Positions 12,951-22,337 of a stretch of DNA of 64,000 nucleotides are shown in pieces. A model generated the notes under the pieces. It was not told the DNA's origin, made no database searches, and saw nothing but the letters and a program-made list of their open reading frames with translations. Made by a program: the position numbers and the translations under genes. The stretch covers positions 248,001 through 312,000 of the forward strand of contig NW_027191470.1 of NCBI RefSeq assembly GCF_011745625.1. Direction: 5' to 3'. Origin of the DNA: Cladosporium halotolerans. Its lineage: Eukaryota. Position 1 is the stretch's first letter. Each line of letters begins with the position of its first letter.

Positions 12951-14924
12951 TCACCCAGTCAAGGCGGCACCCATTTGTCCCCAGCCATCTCCTTCCTCTT
13001 CTGGTCCTGACCCTTTTCCGCCGGCAGATTGACTCCAAGCCTTCTCGACATTGGCCCATGTCCACTTCGATTTCTCCCTCCAACCCTCAATCTTCTCCTC
13101 ACCAGCGTCTTCTGCCAACTGTAGAACATCCCAGCATCGACTGTCCTGGACCTTTGCCAGTTGCGTGGCCAATTTCGACACAGTGCCAAACCGCGGCATC
13201 AACCCAAGAGGCTGCATTTCCATGAAATGCTGGGTGGCCCAGTCTAGAAGCATCTTCACGCGAGCTGTGCCATCGGTCTCCCCACCTGCATCTGGCGCAG
13301 AGGCAGCGGGACGAGCGTGATGCTCACTTGCAAGAGTGTAAACCAAGATAAGGCGATCATAGGTCAACGAGTTCGGCTCGACACGTAGTGCTCGCATTTC
13401 GCCCGCCAGGAAAGAAGCCTGCGCCTCGTCAGGTGGATTCTCGGTGCGGCAACCCTTCAGGAGAAGATTGAAAGTATCAACGTTGGCAAGTGTCTTCGGT
13501 GCGCCGGATGTCTGCGGCGCGAAAGTGTGAATCTGCTTGTAAACTCTGAGTGCTTCCACCAGGTTCTTCTGATAGATCCATGACTCAATGAGTGCATTGA
13601 AAGCCGCGATCGGGACGCCGCGACCCTCTTCGTGAAGGACCCGCAATTGTGCAAAAGCGGCATGTGTAAGATCTGGCGAATTGCGAATACACAGAAACAG
13701 TGATCGCGTTTGCCAAACAGTAGGCTGCAGCTTTTCTGCAGGCATTAAGGTAAGTATACTGAGGGCTCGAATGACATCTGGCGGCGAGGCATTAAGATAA
13801 GCGTCGATAAGGAGCTGGTAATGCAGGGGTTTGAAGACCTCGCCGCGTTTGGAAAGTTGCGTAAAGACCGCCGTGGCTAGCGAAGTATCGCCGCCCCGTG
13901 ATGCAGTCGACAGCACGTTTAAACAGGTGCCACTGCTGGGGTTTATGTAGCCCAAGTTGACCTGAGTCTTCCAAGCCAAGGAAGTCGCATCCAGGTGGTT
14001 GGCGGCGCTGGCTTTTTCGAGGACGTGATGCCATAAGGATCGACTCATGTTGAGCTCGCCGTTCACGTGACGAGCATTCATGATGCTGTATGCTTCTCCG
14101 AGCTCACCAGCTTCACAGAGCATATAGACAAACATGTCCAAGAGCCAGCTTTGTGTGACCATCTGGCGTATTCCCATGCCATCCAGCCTCTCCAAAGCCT
14201 GCTCGAACAGGCCCTCCCTTAATAGACCAGCCGTAATATCATGCTCACCGTCCTCGGACACAGCTATCCACTTTGACCGCATATATTCCAGCAAATCCGT
14301 CCGCAGAAGGTGGTCTGGGTGCACCGCCAGGACCTTGAGAACTGCATGACACGTCGCAGAATCGAGTTTGAAGCCGCTTTGTAGCATCTCTTCCAGCAAA
14401 TCGGTCACTCTCCAGGCCGACCCTGGGTCTGTAGAGATGTTGGCCAGTATGAGTGCATTGTAGTGTTCCAGACTAGGCCTTTCTCTCCTCTCCTTAACCA
14501 AGAACTCCACCACTTCGCGGACTAGCTTGTGCTGTCCTTTTCTCGCAGCGAGCCTCATTTTACTGTATAGCGAGCTTGTCGACTCTGCAGAAAATCCCAC
14601 CGCAGCGGGTTGCTGACCCTTGCTTTTGCTTTGCGCCCAGTTCCGTCCAAGATTCTCTTGTTCATTGCCTCGCATAGGCTGGTCAGAGGGAGGGCTGGAG
14701 ATCGCATCGAGGGGTTGATTCGTAGGTTCCAGAGGGTTTAAAATGGGAGGTTGCTCTGCCAGCCTCAACCTCCCCGAGGCAGAGTACGCTCGACGAGTTG
14801 GGGCATTGAGACATCGTGGTATTTTACGGGCGGTTGATAACCTAATCGGTGCTTTTGATATCGTTGTCGCATTCCAGCTGGGACATAGACATGCCCAAAG
14901 TTCGTCAATGGCAATCCTAGACAT
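12951..14924 (-). CDS. Pentatricopeptide repeat (PPR) protein, probably mitochondrial
   Basis: 657-aa ORF; PPR-like repeats (PSLEHYNALILAN, AAFNALIESW, NVDTFNLLLKGC, PNSLTYDRLILVY); Arg-rich presequence-like N-terminus. Confidence 0.85.
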   Translation of the reverse strand: MSRIAIDELWACLCPSWNATTISKAPIRLSTARKIPRCLNAPTRRAYSASGRLRLAEQPPILNPLEPTNQPLDAISSPPSDQPMRGNEQENLGRNWAQSKSKGQQPAAVGFSAESTSSLYSKMRLAARKGQHKLVREVVEFLVKERRERPSLEHYNALILANISTDPGSAWRVTDLLEEMLQSGFKLDSATCHAVLKVLAVHPDHLLRTDLLEYMRSKWIAVSEDGEHDITAGLLREGLFEQALERLDGMGIRQMVTQSWLLDMFVYMLCEAGELGEAYSIMNARHVNGELNMSRSLWHHVLEKASAANHLDATSLAWKTQVNLGYINPSSGTCLNVLSTASRGGDTSLATAVFTQLSKRGEVFKPLHYQLLIDAYLNASPPDVIRALSILTLMPAEKLQPTVWQTRSLFLCIRNSPDLTHAAFAQLRVLHEEGRGVPIAAFNALIESWIYQKNLVEALRVYKQIHTFAPQTSGAPKTLANVDTFNLLLKGCRTENPPDEAQASFLAGEMRALRVEPNSLTYDRLILVYTLASEHHARPAASAPDAGGETDGTARVKMLLDWATQHFMEMQPLGLMPRFGTVSKLATQLAKVQDSRCWDVLQLAEDAGEEKIEGWREKSKWTWANVEKAWSQSAGGKGSGPEEEGDGWGQMGAALTG

Positions 14925-15064
14925 TCTTCTGCGTTGGTGTCGCAGTACAAATGTTGCGCGTCTTCGCGAATACCAAATGGAGAAGTCGGCGATCTCACTC
15001 CCGATGCGCGGGCGAAAAATGTTGCAAGCAATATATTATTTTTATGCTTCCCATTTATCACCAA

Positions 15065-15159
15065 GCATTGGTGGTTTAGTGGTAAAATTGGCCGTTGCCA
15101 TCTGAAGCTTCTCAGCTCCGAATGTCGGCCAGCCCCGGGTTCGATTCCCGGCCGATGCA
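15065..15159 (+). tRNA. tRNA-Gly(GCC) with a 24-nt intron (15101-15124)
   Basis: Acceptor stem GCATTGG/CCGATGC, A box TGGTTTAGTGG, anticodon stem GGCCG/CGGCC with TT-GCC-A, T arm CCGGG-TTCGATT-CCCGG; 71 nt when spliced; followed by a T6 terminator. Confidence 0.95.
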
Positions 15160-15363: not shown

Positions 15364-18300
15364 TCATTGACCTCGACTGCTGGTGGGCCTGTCTCTGCCT
15401 CTTCTCTCCCTTTTGAAACATCCGAACTCGCCCTTAGTGCCCTCTCTCAGCTTCTTTAGCACGGCCCTCATCTCAGGTAGCTCGCCCTCCAACCTAGTCC
15501 TGGCGTCATTGTCCGTCCTCTCATCCAGAGCTAGATAGACCTGGCTTTGCACCTCACTGGCGCGATCTGTGGTATAATTGTTCAAAGTCTGAGCCATGAA
15601 TTCCACATCCAGCGTGGCTTGCATGAGAGCCGGAAGCGTGTACCGTGGGCGTTGCTTAAACGCCGCAATCAACGCCAGACTGCTTTGCTCCAGAAGATAA
15701 GAGAGAATCTGGTTCGTGAGAGATGACGCTGTTGTGCTGACTTCGCTGTGGACAAGCACCAACTCAAGTAGAACGTCATAAACGTACGGTTGGGCGTCAG
15801 TAGGGCGACCGGATGCAGGCGCCCAAGCTTTGGAGGTGATTCCTGCGGTGATTGTGGTCTGAAGGGAGTCGACGATGGGTTTGACATAAGATTGGAACAG
15901 CCGCGCATCAATCTGGGAGAGGACGTCGCGGATGGTCTTGCTTTCATCCGTGAGCTTGACAGAGAAGGATGACTCAAACTGTGAAATGAGTTGAGGGATG
16001 ATCTCAGAGCGCAGGTGCGCGAGGTTAGAGAGCGTAATTAGGCGACGGACATTCTGAATATAGTCAGTAGGTGGCCCTTCACAACGATGGCCAATGGCAT
16101 CTCTTACCTGGTCTCGGAAGTTGACCAAGACGGTCTCCCCATCGCCACGACCCCCTGCACCCGAAACTAACGTGATGCCGTCGGGATCGTCCTGTCCAGC
16201 ATCATCTAATGTACGTCTCTCGGCATTCTCCACCATGCCACTGAGAGCCTTGTAAAGGCTGGTGACGAAGCAGCCTCTAATTGTTTGCAAAAGCTTCGCG
16301 CTTGGAGGCACGACGACCTCCTCACCTCGCCCTCCAACGCTGGCGGCTTCGGAGATGTATGCAATCTTTTGCATGCCACCGAGGACTTTCTCTTCGAAAG
16401 CAATGAATGTACCTGGCATTGTGGTCAAATCCCGCCTGTCGGGATGTCGCTGCCACATCTCCATATACTTGCACCGTTCAGCATCTGGAACCCAGGCCGC
16501 ACAAACAGCTGCTACACTTCGCTCCCTCACAGCACCAACAAGCGTCTTGAGACTTTCGGTGCCGGACCGCATTGTATTGACGACGCTCAGATTGGCCAGC
16601 TCGCTAGCGGCAGTCCCGACTAGTACAAGGATGCGGCCAAGGTAATGGGCGCCACTCAAAGAATTTCCACCCGGAGGCCAGAAAGCGAACTTCTCCCAAG
16701 CATCTCCCTTGCTTGGATTCAGCGAAGGCACGTTGCTGGGATCAAAGCTAAAGTTTCTGGTAGCACTCGGCGTGCTAGCAGATCCCGGGGTGATAGGAGT
16801 TGGCGGTATTGGTGAATACAGATCAGATAGATCCTGCACAGGTGCGTCTGAGAAGAATGCGAAGGTGCTTTCCCGGAATTGGATGACTAGCTCTTGTGCA
16901 CCAGAACGAAGATTCGCGACATCATCCGGCTCCAGCTCGAGATGCTCAAGACCGGCCGCGAAAACTGCGGTCGGGAATGATCTTTGAGCTTTGTTGTCAA
17001 TGAAGGACTGTGTCGTTTCCCAGAGCTCGATAACTTCACCCAGTAGCCCATTGGTGGGCGAGAGCAGTGCGTTCATCGAGGCCAAAACCTTCTCCCAAAA
17101 CGCAACAACTTTTGTTGAATCGATATCCTTGTTACCTTCTCGTAGAAGACGGACAGACCCTGCGTCCGTTGCTGAGCGTAAATATTTCGCTAGAACCTTA
17201 GGATCAGTGATGGCGTTGTTCGCAAGCTGTCTGCGCTGGATTTCAATCTCGATTCGTATCCTCTCAAAAGATCGGGCGATCCTGTCTTTCAAATAGAGCG
17301 AGCGACTGTTGAGCCAATGCCAGATGGGGTTCTCGTCCACGCCGAGTTGAAGCAAGATGCCTATCAGCTCCATGTGGGATTCTTTATCGGTCTCATCAGA
17401 AATAGCTGCGGGTTTCCGGCCATGTGAAGTTTTGAGGCGCTTCCAAACGTCGCGTTTGTAAATCTCGATCTGGGCGGAAACATCGTGCCACATGCGGGCA
17501 GTGAGGATGATCTGGTACACGTCTCCCTCGGATAGAGTGACATTGCTTTCTTGAGCATACTCAGCAGCGCCTCGGGCTTCTTCCGCGTACTTATTCGCTT
17601 TCTTCCAATCTGCGATAATGGTGTCGAAATCGTTCTTCCTAACAGCCTCATGCACGCTGCCGCCTAGCCTGAAGATCTCCCGATGTTGATCCAGTGAAGT
17701 CAAAATACTCTTGAGACTCTCCTCCTTGTCTCTTCCACCCAACGCAGGGCCCCAGACTTCTTCCGCTCTAATTGCGAGCTCCAGCAATGGCATCTTGATT
17801 CCCTGCACGCCATACTCGCTCTCCTTGGTGAGCGCATTCTTCTTCTTGTCGGCAGATGCTGGTCTGTTCGCAGGACTGAACGGGTTGCTGGAGTTCCTGA
17901 AATGACTCTTACTCGTCTGTCGTGAATGAGGTCCTCTGCCAGCAGTTGAGAGACGCTGATCCTCGAGCGGATCAGCACCCTGCGTGCGCATCTCGGTGTA
18001 AACATTATCAATCGTAGCCTTTGCGCGCACGAACTTCTCAAAATTGCTCTCGACCAGCACCTTCAGCGAAGCACTCTTCTGCTCGATGCTCCTGCTCAAA
18101 AAGTCCAGACCCTGCAGTAGCTGCTCCGTGCTTGCATTCTGGTGAACTTGCGACAAGAACATCTGAGGGGAGAAGCTGGTACTCGAGAGCATGAAGCGAT
18201 TCCGCAATTTGACGTTATCCTCCACAGGCAGCCCTCTTCGCTTGAGCTCCGTAGCAACACTCGGCGCCATGCCTAGCGGATCCGCTTCATCTTTCTGTAC

Positions 18301-18576
18301 CAGGCTGTCCTCCCCACTAGCCGTCTTTTGCGTCCCCGACAAGCTGGACCGTATACTCGCATGGCGGTCTATGTTCTTGTACGTGCTCGAGAGCTTTCTT
18401 GACTTGGTGGAGGCATTTGTTTTCTGGCGCCCGGGCAAGCCATTGGCGACGGCGTCTTCGTCCGAGTCGGTGTCCTCCTCATCGTCGTCGTCCTGATGCG
18501 GCCATTCCGAGGGATACAGGCTGGTAAGATGATATTTGTTGAGAAGCTCGCGCTCCTTGTCCGCAGTTATAGGCAT
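15364..18576 (-). CDS. SEC5: Exocyst complex component Sec5 (EXOC2); one 54-nt intron (16107-16054)
   Basis: FSPQMFLSQVHQNAS, LKVLVESNFEKFVRAKATID, LMQATLDVEFMAQTL; start MPITADKE (accATG). Confidence 0.9.
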   Translation of the reverse strand: MPITADKERELLNKYHLTSLYPSEWPHQDDDDEEDTDSDEDAVANGLPGRQKTNASTKSRKLSSTYKNIDRHASIRSSLSGTQKTASGEDSLVQKDEADPLGMAPSVATELKRRGLPVEDNVKLRNRFMLSSTSFSPQMFLSQVHQNASTEQLLQGLDFLSRSIEQKSASLKVLVESNFEKFVRAKATIDNVYTEMRTQGADPLEDQRLSTAGRGPHSRQTSKSHFRNSSNPFSPANRPASADKKKNALTKESEYGVQGIKMPLLELAIRAEEVWGPALGGRDKEESLKSILTSLDQHREIFRLGGSVHEAVRKNDFDTIIADWKKANKYAEEARGAAEYAQESNVTLSEGDVYQIILTARMWHDVSAQIEIYKRDVWKRLKTSHGRKPAAISDETDKESHMELIGILLQLGVDENPIWHWLNSRSLYLKDRIARSFERIRIEIEIQRRQLANNAITDPKVLAKYLRSATDAGSVRLLREGNKDIDSTKVVAFWEKVLASMNALLSPTNGLLGEVIELWETTQSFIDNKAQRSFPTAVFAAGLEHLELEPDDVANLRSGAQELVIQFRESTFAFFSDAPVQDLSDLYSPIPPTPITPGSASTPSATRNFSFDPSNVPSLNPSKGDAWEKFAFWPPGGNSLSGAHYLGRILVLVGTAASELANLSVVNTMRSGTESLKTLVGAVRERSVAAVCAAWVPDAERCKYMEMWQRHPDRRDLTTMPGTFIAFEEKVLGGMQKIAYISEAASVGGRGEEVVVPPSAKLLQTIRGCFVTSLYKALSGMVENAERRTLDDAGQDDPDGITLVSGAGGRGDGETVLVNFRDQVRDAIGHRCEGPPTDYIQNVRRLITLSNLAHLRSEIIPQLISQFESSFSVKLTDESKTIRDVLSQIDARLFQSYVKPIVDSLQTTITAGITSKAWAPASGRPTDAQPYVYDVLLELVLVHSEVSTTASSLTNQILSYLLEQSSLALIAAFKQRPRYTLPALMQATLDVEFMAQTLNNYTTDRASEVQSQVYLALDERTDNDARTRLEGELPEMRAVLKKLREGTKGEFGCFKRERRGRDRPTSSRGQ

Positions 18577-19525
18577 GGTTGCGCGCGAAGAGCCGCGCAG
18601 GCGCGATCCAGTAGAGTATGGTGGGCGTGGTGGGACACCTAGCCAAAGTTCAATGATACGCGAGACATGCCTGGGGTCATCCGGGGACAAGGTGGGCCCA
18701 GCTGCAGCTGCCCGCTGCGCAGAGCCTCATGGCTTCGGACTTCATGTGTTGACTCCATTTCCGAACTGCACTTCAACAAATGACATGTGGAAATCAAGAG
18801 CCACTTAGTAGTGCCAGTGTGACCAAAAGTGCTTTGAAGTCTATACAAAGCCGATAAACTTGATCGACGAAGTTCCTGCTACCTATTACACGAAACCAAT
18901 CGAAAGCTCGTGAAATACATCGGGCTAAAATGTGGCAAGGCATATAGATGGCTGTACCTTTTGAGGGCATTGGTATTTGAATATGTTGCTTCGCAAGTGT
19001 GTTTGATTGAAACGGAAAATGCAAGTGAAACAGACGGGGCGATACGACCTTGAGTTAGTTAGCTTCACTCGAACATCCACCCTCATGTTACGTCTTTGCC
19101 TGCGGACGCATTACCTGCGAGTAATAGTCGCAGTCTAGAGTAGCCCTCACCAAAACGAAAGGGGCACGAAAGATCGGCAACTTGCTTTGATCAATACCAG
19201 ATCTTCGTTGAAGTACCTTCGCTCCCAAGGCTTAGTGAAGTGATGGCGGCCAAGATTGACACAACTGATGAGGGAGACGTTTACCTTGAGAAAGAAGCTT
19301 TGGACCACACTTGATCGAAGCCGTTCTAAACCTGAAGATTAGAATACTAAGTTGCGCCCGTTGACCCAGAGTACTATGCGCAGATTACCACAATGAGCTA
19401 AGACGATCCGGTCAGTTTGTACCAATCGTCAAACCAAGCAAACACCCCTCAAGTCCACCTCACTGCCCTTCCCTGCGCCCAGCCTACATATGCCATGTTG
19501 CACCACTGCTGCCGTTCTACGGAAC

Positions 19526-19681
19526 GGGACCCCCCTCGAACCGGCCCTAACCAGGTCGGCGTAGTTTAGTGGTTAGAACGTTGCAAACCGAGCTGAGCGA
19601 TCTCTTTGCTCCTAAGAGTCTAGGGTTGTAGAGACGCGGGTTCGAATCCTGTGATCGAGGTAAGAGGTCCCCCTTTTTTTT
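19526..19681 (+). ncRNA. tRNA-like putative Pol III RNA, pseudo-tRNA or SINE head
   Basis: A box TAGTTTAGTGG (19562), D arm, B box/T arm GCGGG-TTCGAAT-CCTGT, oligo-T terminator 19674-19681. It has no canonical anticodon loop or acceptor stem. Confidence 0.6.
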
Positions 19682-20178
19682 GCAACTTTGTTTGCAAGAT
19701 TGTGTTGTCCATCTGTCTAAAGCAGAGAGTTGCCCTCTCCTGCAAGGTACCAGTGAGGATCTCTAGAGTTTTTTTTCGTGAGTATTGTTGTTGTGGTACT
19801 TGCAGCATGCCGGCTGTCGTCGCATAGCAACGCTCGGGTATGCTTGATGGTGGACAGCTCGGTCGCTAATTGTTCGCCTGCCCTGCTACTCAATCAGTAG
19901 AAGAACACAAGCCCTCCTGTGCCATGCGGCAGGGAAGAGCCGATGCTGCGTGGTTGTCAGTCGTATGACCAAGACAACCAAAGAATGACAATTGCCTGTG
20001 TTCCTGACGGACTCCGAGATATCCAAAGCAAGCACCACCAATGAAGCGGCCGTGTAAAGGGGTGGATGTAATCCATTCGCTTCTTAGCATATTTACAGAT
20101 GTCTTTACCACAGTCGCGTCGCGCGCTGCGTGTCCCATGAACGCCGTTATTCCACATCGAATCCTTCGCGATCTCGAT

Positions 20179-20587
20179 CTACGAGGATCCCTCGCCAGCC
20201 GCCTTCTGCGCCGCCTCGTGCTCCTTGATCTGCCTGGACCAGTATCTCGAAGGGGCGAACCTGTCAGGCTGTTTCCAATGCAATCAGTACATAGCACACT
20301 CTATCAATCCTCAGGCCGGCCCTCGACTCAATGCACACATACCTCGGGGATCTTGTACCTGTGCTCCCTGTCCGCGCTCACGCTCCAGGCCATGGCTGTG
20401 ACTCCGACGATAACACCAATCATGACGGCGGTGTTTGCGCGCCAGTTCTTGGGCTGGGCGTACCAACCACCGGCCGGGGACCAGACGTGCTTCGGGTACC
20501 TGTAGTCGCGATGTCGTCAGCCATTGGTATTCCGTGCGCTCTTCAGAATAGCTGCTACACATACGGGACCTTGGCGCCGCCGCCCAT
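20179..20587 (-). CDS. Small mitochondrial membrane protein, NUUM-like accessory subunit of respiratory complex I; 3 exons (20587-20565, 20499-20343, 20268-20179)
   Basis: Spliced product MGGGAKVPYPKHVWSPAGGWYAQPKNWRANTAVMIGVIVGVTAMAW...PDRFAPSRYWSRQIKE; both introns GTATGT..CAG. The NUUM resemblance is recalled from memory. Confidence 0.75.
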
Positions 20588-20903
20588 GAGTGCTTGTGTA
20601 GGCTTCATTGTTGTTGTGAGTTGTGCTGTGCTTGCGCCGGGAGCTGCCAATCATCTGGCTGTATTAGTGGAGGTGAGGTTGGAGGGCGAAGTGCGGGCCA
20701 CGGAGGTGCTGGCTGGATGCGGCCTAGCGCATTCTCTGTGTCGTGTGCATAGCTTCGCAGCGGGCGATTTTCCCAAGTTGCGGAGCGCATAGGGAAAGGG
20801 ACCACGGAACGACTGCATTGCGACAACACTCGTTTGCCGAAGACACCAGTAGCCATCGACCGACACGCACGCGCCCGCTGCGTGTGCCTGGAGACTGTGC
20901 TGG

Positions 20904-22337
20904 ATGGAGGCCCTAATGAAGCGCATGCACCTGGAGAGATGGGCCGGTCACATACAAGCGCCACGGAATCCCCGGTTACCCTGCCGCGATGCTGCGAGAA
21001 TCGAGCACAGGAGGATCACTGCGAAGGGAATTCAGGTACAACAACAATGGGCGCAAAGGAGGGCCTACACCGTGTCGGCAAGGAGGATGGCGGAGGTGGA
21101 ACAAGTTCAAGAGGCGGACATCCCATTGAAAGAAACCGGAAGCACTCCTGCGAAGGCTGCTAAAAGACAACCACCCGTAGCACGGGTAAGGAACTTCTAC
21201 CATGACCTCCAGACACCCTCACATGCGCGAGCTACACAGTCCGCGAAGCTGGCCGCTCTCCACGCCAGACTGTCGCTGCCTTCGAAACTCCCCTTGCAGA
21301 CCCTGGCGAGATGTCTGATAGATTCATCTGTCGATCCTAGGCCCGGATACAACAACGCCCCTCTCGCTCTCCTTGGTCAAGACTTGCTCGGTTACTATAC
21401 ATCAGAGCACCTGCTTTGCCACTATCCCCGCATCCCAATGCCTGTCCTCTTCGCCGCGCAGTACGGTTACGTCGGTCCCGCAACCCTCGGAGCACTGCGT
21501 TCGGAATGGGGTGTTGAGGTCGCAGCCGCGCCTGGTCAAGAAGTCGACCCTGGTCTTTTGCAGCTCAAGCGCGTGGCACCTGGAAATGCTCTCAGTGAGG
21601 ACGGAATGACCCTGAAGAAAGACATGCCCAGCCTCAGGCGTCTGCAAACCGGCCGTCGCAACGAAGAATACCACTACCGCCGAGGCATTTCCAGCCGCAT
21701 TGTATACGATGACCAATTCGGCGATCTGCAGACTGGCATGCCCGACCCTGACGCGAAGCCTTACCCCGGCGTTCCTATGTCATCCCGCCGTGAAGAGCAC
21801 AACACCGACGAAGTCGCAAAGCAGGAAGCCCAGAATGTTGCTCCTGAGGAGCCTCAAGAAGGCGTCACCGTCGAGGCCGCCAGTGCTTCCTTCGTCCGCG
21901 CGCTGGCCGGTGCCCTCCACTTGCACGCCGGCGCGTCTGCCAGCAAAGCATTCCACACCGAACACATTCTCAGCCGTCACCTCCAGCTCCACCAGCTCTT
22001 CAACTTCAATCACCCCACCCGCGATCTCTCCCGTCTTTGTCTCCGCGAGAACTTCGAGCCCCCTGTCGCTCGTCTGGTCAGCGAAACCGGTCGTCACTCT
22101 CGTAGCCCTGTCTTCGTTGTTGGTGTATACAGTGGCGATGAGAAGCTGGGCGAGGGCGCAGGAAGCAGTCTGAACGAAGCCCGCGTGCGCGCAGCAGCGG
22201 CTGCGCTCCGCAGCTGGTACCTGTACTCGCCGACCGTGTCGGAGGTCATGGTTCCCAGCGATATGGAGTTGGCAGAGGTCAAGGCGAGAAGGAGCTTCAA
22301 GCCGCAGATGGTTGACGTTGGCGAGATCATCTCCTAG
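20904..22337 (+). CDS. MRPL3: Mitochondrial large-subunit ribosomal protein mL44 (yeast MRPL3), RNase III-like plus dsRBD
   Basis: SAKLAALHARLSLP, PGQEVDPGLLQ, PTRDLSRLCLRENFEPPVARLVSETGRHSRSPVFVVGVYSG; start at 20904 or 20916. Confidence 0.9.
   Translation: MEALMKRMHLERWAGHIQAPRNPRLPCRDAARIEHRRITAKGIQVQQQWAQRRAYTVSARRMAEVEQVQEADIPLKETGSTPAKAAKRQPPVARVRNFYHDLQTPSHARATQSAKLAALHARLSLPSKLPLQTLARCLIDSSVDPRPGYNNAPLALLGQDLLGYYTSEHLLCHYPRIPMPVLFAAQYGYVGPATLGALRSEWGVEVAAAPGQEVDPGLLQLKRVAPGNALSEDGMTLKKDMPSLRRLQTGRRNEEYHYRRGISSRIVYDDQFGDLQTGMPDPDAKPYPGVPMSSRREEHNTDEVAKQEAQNVAPEEPQEGVTVEAASASFVRALAGALHLHAGASASKAFHTEHILSRHLQLHQLFNFNHPTRDLSRLCLRENFEPPVARLVSETGRHSRSPVFVVGVYSGDEKLGEGAGSSLNEARVRAAAAALRSWYLYSPTVSEVMVPSDMELAEVKARRSFKPQMVDVGEIIS

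Follow-up and report, generated by a model that had tools for sequence, protein, structure and literature searches.

Former tRNA genes that still recruit the RNA polymerase III (Pol III) machinery are known from budding yeast. PMC5356446 describes ZOD1 as an ancient tRNA-Ile gene with weak transcription that is bound by TFIIIC, TFIIIB and Pol III; the YGR033C locus is described there as the relic of a tDNA-Arg ancestor. Here we report on a tRNA-like element at positions 19526-19681 of a 64,000-nt stretch of Cladosporium halotolerans DNA (positions 248,001 to 312,000 of contig NW_027191470.1, forward strand, assembly GCF_011745625.1; the whole stretch is called the window below, and coordinates refer to it). 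An initial annotation of the window had proposed that this element may be a functional tRNA-mimic RNA. Like ZOD1, YGR033C and the extra TFIIIC (ETC) sites, it has the look of a degenerate former tRNA gene that lies between genes and has kept its A and B boxes. Yeast tDNA relics are conserved among close relatives; this element, too, combines tRNA descent and both boxes with a conservation that exceeds that of its flanks, in one lineage and by the differences listed for it. Unlike ZOD1, it has an alternative acceptor-like pairing and is interrupted by two separate inserts, one of 20 nt ahead of position 8 and one of 34-41 nt within the anticodon loop. The two loci have no sequence relation and belong to different fungal groups, and occupancy and transcription, established for ZOD1, are predicted for the candidate. 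Our preferred interpretation, to which we give an even chance, is that the element may be a conserved single-copy nuclear tRNA gene relic, with its ends and anticodon loop remodelled and its promoter, L-shape core and terminator kept.

The tRNA-type core consists of the following parts:

19562-19572, plus strand: A box TAGTTTAGTGG (read from the sequence)
19562-19579, plus strand: U8-A9 plus the D arm, which holds the A box (Rfam alignment)
19564-67 and 19576-79, plus strand: D stem GTTT/GAAC (read from the sequence)
19581-85 and 19627-31, plus strand: anticodon stem TTGCA/TGTAG (Rfam alignment)
19586-19626, plus strand: 41-nt stretch that replaces the 7-nt anticodon loop (a 41-nt insertion in the loop of the Rfam model)
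19595-19600 and 19606-11, plus strand: inner hairpin GAGCGA/TTGCTC in the insert (read from the sequence)
19632-19635, plus strand: 4-nt variable region AGAC (Rfam alignment)
19636-19652, plus strand: T arm GCGGG-TTCGAAT-CCTGT, with two G.U pairs (Rfam alignment)
19639-49, plus strand: perfect B box GGTTCGAATCC (pattern scan of the window)
19674-19681, plus strand: T8 run resembling a Pol III terminator (read from the sequence)
19555-19561, plus strand: GTCGGCG, the 7 nt immediately before position 8, where the acceptor 5' strand normally sits

The B box is the sole perfect copy within the 64-kb window, and the 18-nt string of the D arm gave one match against 0.01 expected. As read from the alignment and in standard tRNA numbering, the bases that make tertiary contacts are complete: U8, A14, G15/C48, G18 and G19, A21, G26/A44, G53, T54, T55 and C56, A58, and C61. 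The Rfam tRNA model (RF00005) matches 19562-19652 locally, over model positions 8-63, at 22.4 bits versus a gathering cut-off of 29; the E-value is 0.025 in a search of 401 nt and 4 over the whole window. It is the only Rfam family found in 19400-19800 at E up to 10, with neither the mascRNA-menRNA family nor a Y RNA family among the matches.

A true tRNA gene elsewhere in the window serves as a control for these searches:

15065-15159, plus strand: normal tRNA-Gly(GCC) gene, its anticodon loop interrupted by a 24-nt intron (ARAGORN with introns; Rfam 47.6 bits)

With introns allowed and default thresholds, ARAGORN leaves the candidate uncalled, while it calls the tRNA-Gly gene at the same settings; in the E-value mode of Rfam, that gene gives a global match of 47.6 bits against the local 22.4 bits of the candidate. 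ARAGORN in bacterial mode and an Rfam scan in gathering mode return nothing in the whole window. These two negatives carry little weight, because the genuine tRNA-Gly is missed as well. When the ARAGORN threshold is lowered to 80%, poor and overlapping calls of Leu-GAG, Asp-ATC and Glu-CTC appear, which we judged to be artefacts.

Of the properties of a canonical tRNA, the locus has the D arm, the T arm and the tertiary-contact bases, and it lacks a score at the curated level, an acceptor 5' strand adjoining position 8, and a 7-nt loop with U33 and a purine at 37. The heptamer GTCGGCG before position 8 has no 3' partner, its best match to a complement downstream being 4/7. The anticodon stem is extendable to TTGCAA/TTGTAG (19581-86 and 19626-31), the bases that follow its 5' strand are AACCGAG, without U33, and the 41-nt stretch is predicted to fold into an irregular rod with a UCUCU tip. 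A canonical intron at 37/38 is not obtainable; the sole loop-like reading requires an insert at 31/32. The tRNA-Gly gene and the candidate share the D and T arms, the A and B boxes, a 4-nt variable region, a T run and extra sequence in the anticodon loop. In contrast to tRNA-Gly, the candidate has no U33, its acceptor 5' strand is displaced by 20 nt, its match is local at 22.4 bits, and it has no ARAGORN call. Judged by these features, the locus certainly descends from a tRNA and is certainly no standard tRNA gene. In the form in which it is encoded, it cannot serve as a decoding tRNA, because it has no 7-nt anticodon loop, no U33, and no acceptor stem in the normal place. Much of the initial annotation is borne out here: A box, D arm, perfect B box and T8 run are all in place, the bases before the D arm form no acceptor stem, the insert it had put at about 40 nt measures 41 nt and lacks U33, and its view of the locus as tRNA-derived, non-standard as a tRNA and equipped with Pol III-type signals is supported by both Rfam and ARAGORN. 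A high-scoring call of a standard intron-containing tRNA, named in that annotation among the outcomes that would refute it, was not obtained (Rfam 22.4 bits, nothing from ARAGORN).

An acceptor-like helix can nevertheless be drawn from two more distant strands:

19534-19541, plus strand: CCTCGAAC, acceptor-like 5' strand, pairing with 19653-60 (inverted-repeat scan; ARAGORN drawing of an in-silico construct)
19653-19660, plus strand: GATCGAGG, acceptor-like 3' strand that follows the T stem immediately (inverted-repeat scan; ARAGORN drawing)

Of the 8 positions of these strands, 7 pair, the exception being an A.A mismatch; the helix includes CCTCGA (19534-39) with TCGAGG (19655-60), and the 5' strand sits 20 nt further upstream than its normal site. 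With this helix, the locus might be read as a working tRNA-Pro(AGG) gene with non-canonical interruptions at two places, 20 nt (19542-61) between positions 7 and 8 and 34 nt (19586-19619) between positions 31 and 32, the removal of which would leave the loop CTAGGGT. That this is so strikes us as very improbable. In its support, in-silico removal of the 5' insert yields a default ARAGORN call with a 34-nt intron in 24 of 168 constructs, the resulting loop has T33 and G37, and the remaining insert is predicted to pair with anticodon-loop bases. However, a scan of 19520-19680 found five strict bulge-helix-bulge motifs, none of which brackets either insert and all of which would excise parts of the core; the acceptor would need 8 bp and an A.A mismatch; the D arm and the acceptor appear unlike those of eukaryotic tRNA-Pro; and a pyrimidine at 32, T33 and a purine at 37 would occur in the 7 nt before the 3' strand of the stem about once in 16 times by chance. 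The tables of PMC4033280 also give eukaryotic multiple-intron tRNA genes only for Cyanidioschyzon merolae and permuted eukaryotic tRNA genes only for algae and a nucleomorph, with none of these forms for fungi. Disrupted tRNA genes of Cyanidioschyzon merolae and of archaea do share with the candidate that parts are interrupted at odd positions and that a cloverleaf is recoverable in silico; unlike them, the candidate has no bulge-helix-bulge motif at either boundary and its arm order is not permuted. A permuted tRNA was considered and rejected, as the order of parts (acceptor 5' strand, extra hairpin, D arm, interrupted anticodon arm, T arm, acceptor 3' strand) is no circular permutation of the cloverleaf.

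The conservation of the locus was studied in related sequences. A search of sequencing runs returned 20 rows, from 14 studies, with the stretch or part of it, and 14 of the rows held at least half of the sampled words. Over 18000-21000, we compared contigs of two DNA runs, X6 and X8, which come from different studies and carry different organism labels, and of two RNA libraries, X15 and X18. Single contigs cross the locus in both DNA runs (18000-20689 in X6 and 18317-20597 in X8). As X6 and X8 share nearly all of their differences, they amount to one effective comparison with a lineage only ~2-3% diverged. The listed substitutions in these contigs number 31 in 18578-19457, none in 19458-19719, and 5 in 19720-19772. 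The flanking intergenic DNA differs by ~3-4%; in the 262-nt block, ~10 substitutions are expected and none is listed. Its sole change is in the T run, which is extended by 4 T in the X6 contig and by 7 T in that of X8 and is never shorter than 8. On either side of the element, the block takes in two further stretches:

19458-19525, plus strand: upstream stretch, in the expected TFIIIB zone, with no listed difference in the relatives (contig comparison)
19682-19719, plus strand: downstream stretch with no listed difference, containing TTGCAA-CTTTGT-TTGCAA (contig comparison; repeat scan)

Under a uniform model with 36 substitutions over 18577-19772, the probability of a gap of at least 262 nt is 0.005, and that of no substitution in 19526-19681 is 0.0065. 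The block 19458-19719 thus appears to be under purifying selection, and the element is probably kept for some use. In this comparison, the locus shows no sign of free decay, a point in support of the initial annotation: no substitution is listed across it in either X6 or X8, against ~3-4% in the flanks.

Several points weigh against the idea of a retained relic. (I) For the tRNA core alone, the uniform model gives a probability of no substitution of only 0.058, and the comparison is effectively a single one, with a lineage of low divergence. (II) There are 54 further differences beyond those listed. The listed X6 differences are inferred to be complete up to 19772, because the rows of equal support end there in coordinate order and the X6 contig has 63 differences in total, of which 39 are listed, leaving 24 for the 917 nt beyond; the ~4 differences found only in X8 could fall anywhere in 18317-20597. 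(III) Other gaps free of differences exist in the same intergenic region, of 182 nt (18579-18760) and 124 nt (19060-19183), which may be the 5' untranslated region or core promoter of the neighbouring Sec5 gene and another regulatory block. (IV) The invariance covers all 262 nt and extends beyond the boxes, unlike what a pure TFIIIC site would predict. (V) Two of the 5 pairs in the T stem and 2 of 5 in the anticodon stem, 4/10 together, are G.U pairs, which looks like decay. (VI) The upstream DNA is GC-rich and lacks the AT-rich, TATA-like tract of the window's tRNA-Gly; the sole TATA-like string in 19458-19525 is a weak CATATG at 19487-92, a palindrome.

An alternative is an inert tRNA pseudogene, wrecked by two small insertions or rearrangements. 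Its invariance would then be due to chance, to a cold spot for mutation or to the constraint of a Pol II regulatory element that overlaps it. The tRNA score below threshold, the G.U pairs, the lost acceptor, the chance level of all extra stems (see below), the nearby gaps of 182 and 124 nt and the single related lineage compared all agree with such an origin. What it does not readily account for is the absence of listed substitutions where ~10 are expected (P about 0.005 in the maximum-gap test), together with the fact that both boxes (B and A) and all bases of the tertiary contacts have been retained, along with a T run of at least 8. We regard a pseudogene as unlikely, although it is the alternative we take most seriously.

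In the same comparison, the first ~577 nt of the Sec5 coding sequence (18000-18577) show no listed difference in the X6 contig. This is fewer than synonymous sites alone predict, and hints at mosaic divergence or strong constraint.

The other searches concerned transcripts and homologues. The RNA contigs of X15 and X18 cover only part of Sec5 and a spliced gene at 20050-20620, plus 20827-20977 in X18, and leave the element uncovered; assembled RNA contigs are uninformative on a small Pol III RNA and cannot show its absence. A metagenome pattern scan (D-arm string, a gap of 45-75 nt, B box) gave no homologue, its three loci (L001-L003) all being unrelated, AT-rich, intron-bearing tRNA genes. 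Prokaryote genome contigs scanned with a 22-mer gave 0 matches, and the 18-nt D-arm string had no match in full-text literature. Among the matches listed for literature on fungal tRNA-like Pol III RNAs, non-canonical fungal tRNA introns and fungal tRNA-derived short interspersed nuclear elements (SINEs), no such locus appears, a statement that does not extend to subscription journals.

Outside the tRNA core, the initial annotation had pointed to two closing stems and an additional hairpin. Besides the acceptor-like strands given above, these comprise:

19526-19531, plus strand: GGGACC, 5' strand of the outer closing stem, pairing with 19666-71 (inverted-repeat scan)
19666-19671, plus strand: GGTCCC, 3' strand of the outer closing stem (inverted-repeat scan)
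19541-19559, plus strand: extra hairpin CCGGCC-CTAACCA-GGTCGG (fold and inverted-repeat scan)

The pairings CCTCGA/TCGAGG and GGGACC/GGTCCC and the extra hairpin do exist at these places, and the closing stems and hairpin are present both in the free minimum free energy (MFE) fold (-55.8 kcal/mol) and in the fold constrained to the cloverleaf core (-51.9 kcal/mol). To gauge them against chance, the 5' flank (19526-61) was paired with the 3' flank (19653-73), and the same was done with dinucleotide shuffles and with equally spaced natural positions of the window. The flank duplex of -21.3 kcal/mol is equalled by 125/2000 shuffles and by 52/3000 natural positions. An acceptor-like pairing of at least 6/7 to the 7 nt behind the T stem arises within 60 nt upstream in 1944/5000 shuffles, and 34 inverted-repeat pairs of at least 6 nt are found in the 441 nt around the locus. 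The stability of the extra hairpin is equalled in 159/1000 shuffles, that of the anticodon arm with its insert in 203/1000, and that of the insert alone in 543/1000. For the whole 148 nt, the fold has z = -2.23, with 6 of 200 shuffles equally good. The extra structures are at or near chance level, and the tRNA core is beyond chance. Consequently, the argument of the initial annotation that complementary flanks and structured inserts imply a functional tRNA-mimic fold is a weak one, because such stems arise at or near chance.

The loop of the extra hairpin, CTAACCA (19547-19553), is the exact complement of the D-loop string TGGTTAG (19570-19576), which includes G18 and G19. A complement of this length occurs in the core for 87 of 20000 random 7-mers; the test is post hoc and is given little weight. 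The complementarity could reflect templated insertion or an alternative fold. Further complements of the D arm lie upstream (19502-07 and 19513-19) and were set aside, being 6-7-mers expected by chance whose helices would cross.

A second consideration is where transcription would begin. For S. cerevisiae tRNA genes, PMC5356446, a review of yeast Pol III, states that, counted on the mature tRNA, the A box begins at +8, that the start is usually 10-12 nt before the mature 5' end, that a distance of 31-93 nt lies between the A box and the B box, and that Pol III terminates at a T run located <20 nt beyond the mature 3' end. The candidate keeps within the yeast limits in both respects, with 77 nt from the start of one box to that of the other and a T run that sets in 14 nt after 19660. 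By the yeast rule, the Pol III start would be expected ~18-20 nt before the A box, near 19542-19544, and the 5' strands of both closing stems would therefore lie upstream, outside the RNA. If this fungus obeys yeast spacing, the closed molecule of ~150 nt would not exist as an RNA, and this part of the initial annotation would fall with it. Upstream elements are able to shift Pol III start sites.

These results bear on the proposal that the locus encodes a trans-acting tRNA-mimic non-coding RNA of ~150 nt, with two closing stems, a five-way junction, the extra hairpin and a long anticodon rod. The stems are present, the inner one adjoins the T stem without a gap, in the way of an acceptor 3' strand, and stems and hairpin appear in both the free and the constrained folds. 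Moreover, the conserved block begins 68 nt upstream of 19526, which leaves room for an upstream start, and the hairpin loop perfectly complements the D loop, with the post hoc caveat given above. Nevertheless, the closing duplex, the hairpin and the arm with its insert are matched by shuffles at the rates already stated (125/2000, 159/1000 and 203/1000), and the start expected from yeast falls downstream of both 5' strands. If the RNA is tRNA-like, its outer stem should in any case be stripped by RNase P and RNase Z, no Rfam family besides tRNA (mascRNA-menRNA included) is matched at E up to 10, and the relatives are identical, so that no covariation signal is obtainable. We consider the proposal improbable. 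In its most novel form, the fungus would have a Pol III gene whose product is a stable tRNA mimic without a decoding role, made of an elbow, an acceptor-like helix, an extra 5' hairpin able to pair with the D loop through its own loop and a rod of ~20 bp where the anticodon arm would be, and selected for a role at the RNA level, such as binding or titrating a tRNA-handling protein; we hold this to be similarly doubtful. If true, it would be the counterpart, made by Pol III in a eukaryotic nucleus, of YrlA in bacteria or mascRNA in vertebrates.

The YrlA Y RNAs combine a terminal closing stem with a tRNA-like domain. The RNAs mascRNA/menRNA, the tRNA-like RNA of Arabidopsis GUT15 and bacterial YrlA resemble the candidate in having a tRNA-shaped elbow without a decoding function. 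Unlike the candidate, they are cut from Pol II transcripts or are bacterial, and the closing stem of the candidate is not beyond chance.

For a retained tRNA gene relic, the motifs suggest the following course of events. TFIIIC would bind the perfect B box at 19639-49 as well as the A box at 19562-72 and would position TFIIIB on the invariant upstream stretch; Pol III would then initiate ~18-20 nt before the A box, near 19542-19544, and end at the T run, giving a non-decoding, tRNA-like transcript of ~130-140 nt. Going by the yeast examples, the relic is probably still bound by TFIIIC and weakly transcribed. The property under selection may be the bound Pol III complex itself, acting in cis between the 3' end of a small neighbouring gene (20179-20608) and the Sec5 promoter, as has been proposed for yeast tDNA relics and ETC sites; alternatively, it may be the RNA. 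We lean slightly towards the role in cis, because no structure of the RNA other than the tRNA core exceeds chance.

The initial annotation had named a short tRNA-derived SINE as its alternative. Such elements (e.g., rodent B2, with Magnaporthe MgSINE as a further example) share with the candidate a Pol III type-2 promoter in a tRNA-like head, and the candidate is flanked by a 13-nt direct repeat of 85% identity (19464-76 and 19731-43). This repeat, however, is misplaced, pyrimidine-rich and at about chance level, and makes no convincing target-site duplication; the T8 run would halt Pol III 49 nt short of its right-hand copy. Unlike SINEs, the candidate lacks both a body unrelated to tRNA and a tail, whether A-rich or of simple repeats, and it is present in one copy in the 64-kb window. 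The single contigs of X6 and X8 also run unbroken through it, which argues against a near-identical, multi-copy repeat at 31-mer resolution. A SINE or another mobile element copy is therefore disfavoured, and we would be surprised to see it confirmed.

Taken as a tRNA gene relic, the locus adds to a known kind; it is a modest curiosity and no new RNA class. If it is kept by selection, it would represent a dead tRNA gene outside budding yeast that is retained as a Pol III/TFIIIC landmark or as a tRNA-like RNA, and its position between two housekeeping genes is simple and testable. If its conservation is due to chance, it would be an ordinary pseudogene. In either case, there is a lesson for annotation: such loci are invisible to standard tRNA finders, and the gathering mode of Rfam missed even the genuine intron-bearing tRNA in the window.

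The element lies in an intergenic region of ~1.6 kb, ~950 nt upstream of the Sec5 ATG and ~500 nt beyond the stop codon of the small gene on the other side:

15364-18576, minus strand: Sec5 gene (Pfam Sec5, 574 bits)
~20179-20608, minus strand: small three-exon gene of ~96 aa with one hydrophobic stretch (introns backed by RNA contigs)

The introns of the small gene, 20269-20342 and 20497-20561, have GT..AG ends on the minus strand and are backed by RNA contigs from two studies. Its exon 2 and exon 3 peptides matched no Pfam family at E up to 1, and the label "NUUM" given to it in the initial annotation is unconfirmed. The tRNA-Gly(GCC) gene at 15065-15159 has an AT-rich, TATA-like tract upstream and a T5 run immediately 3' of it. 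Further out, the open frame 12951-15035 on the minus strand contains pentatricopeptide (PPR) or fungal tetratricopeptide (TPR) repeats, and the open frame 20853-22337 on the plus strand contains a double-stranded-RNA-binding motif; the products of both are plausibly mitochondrial RNA-handling proteins.

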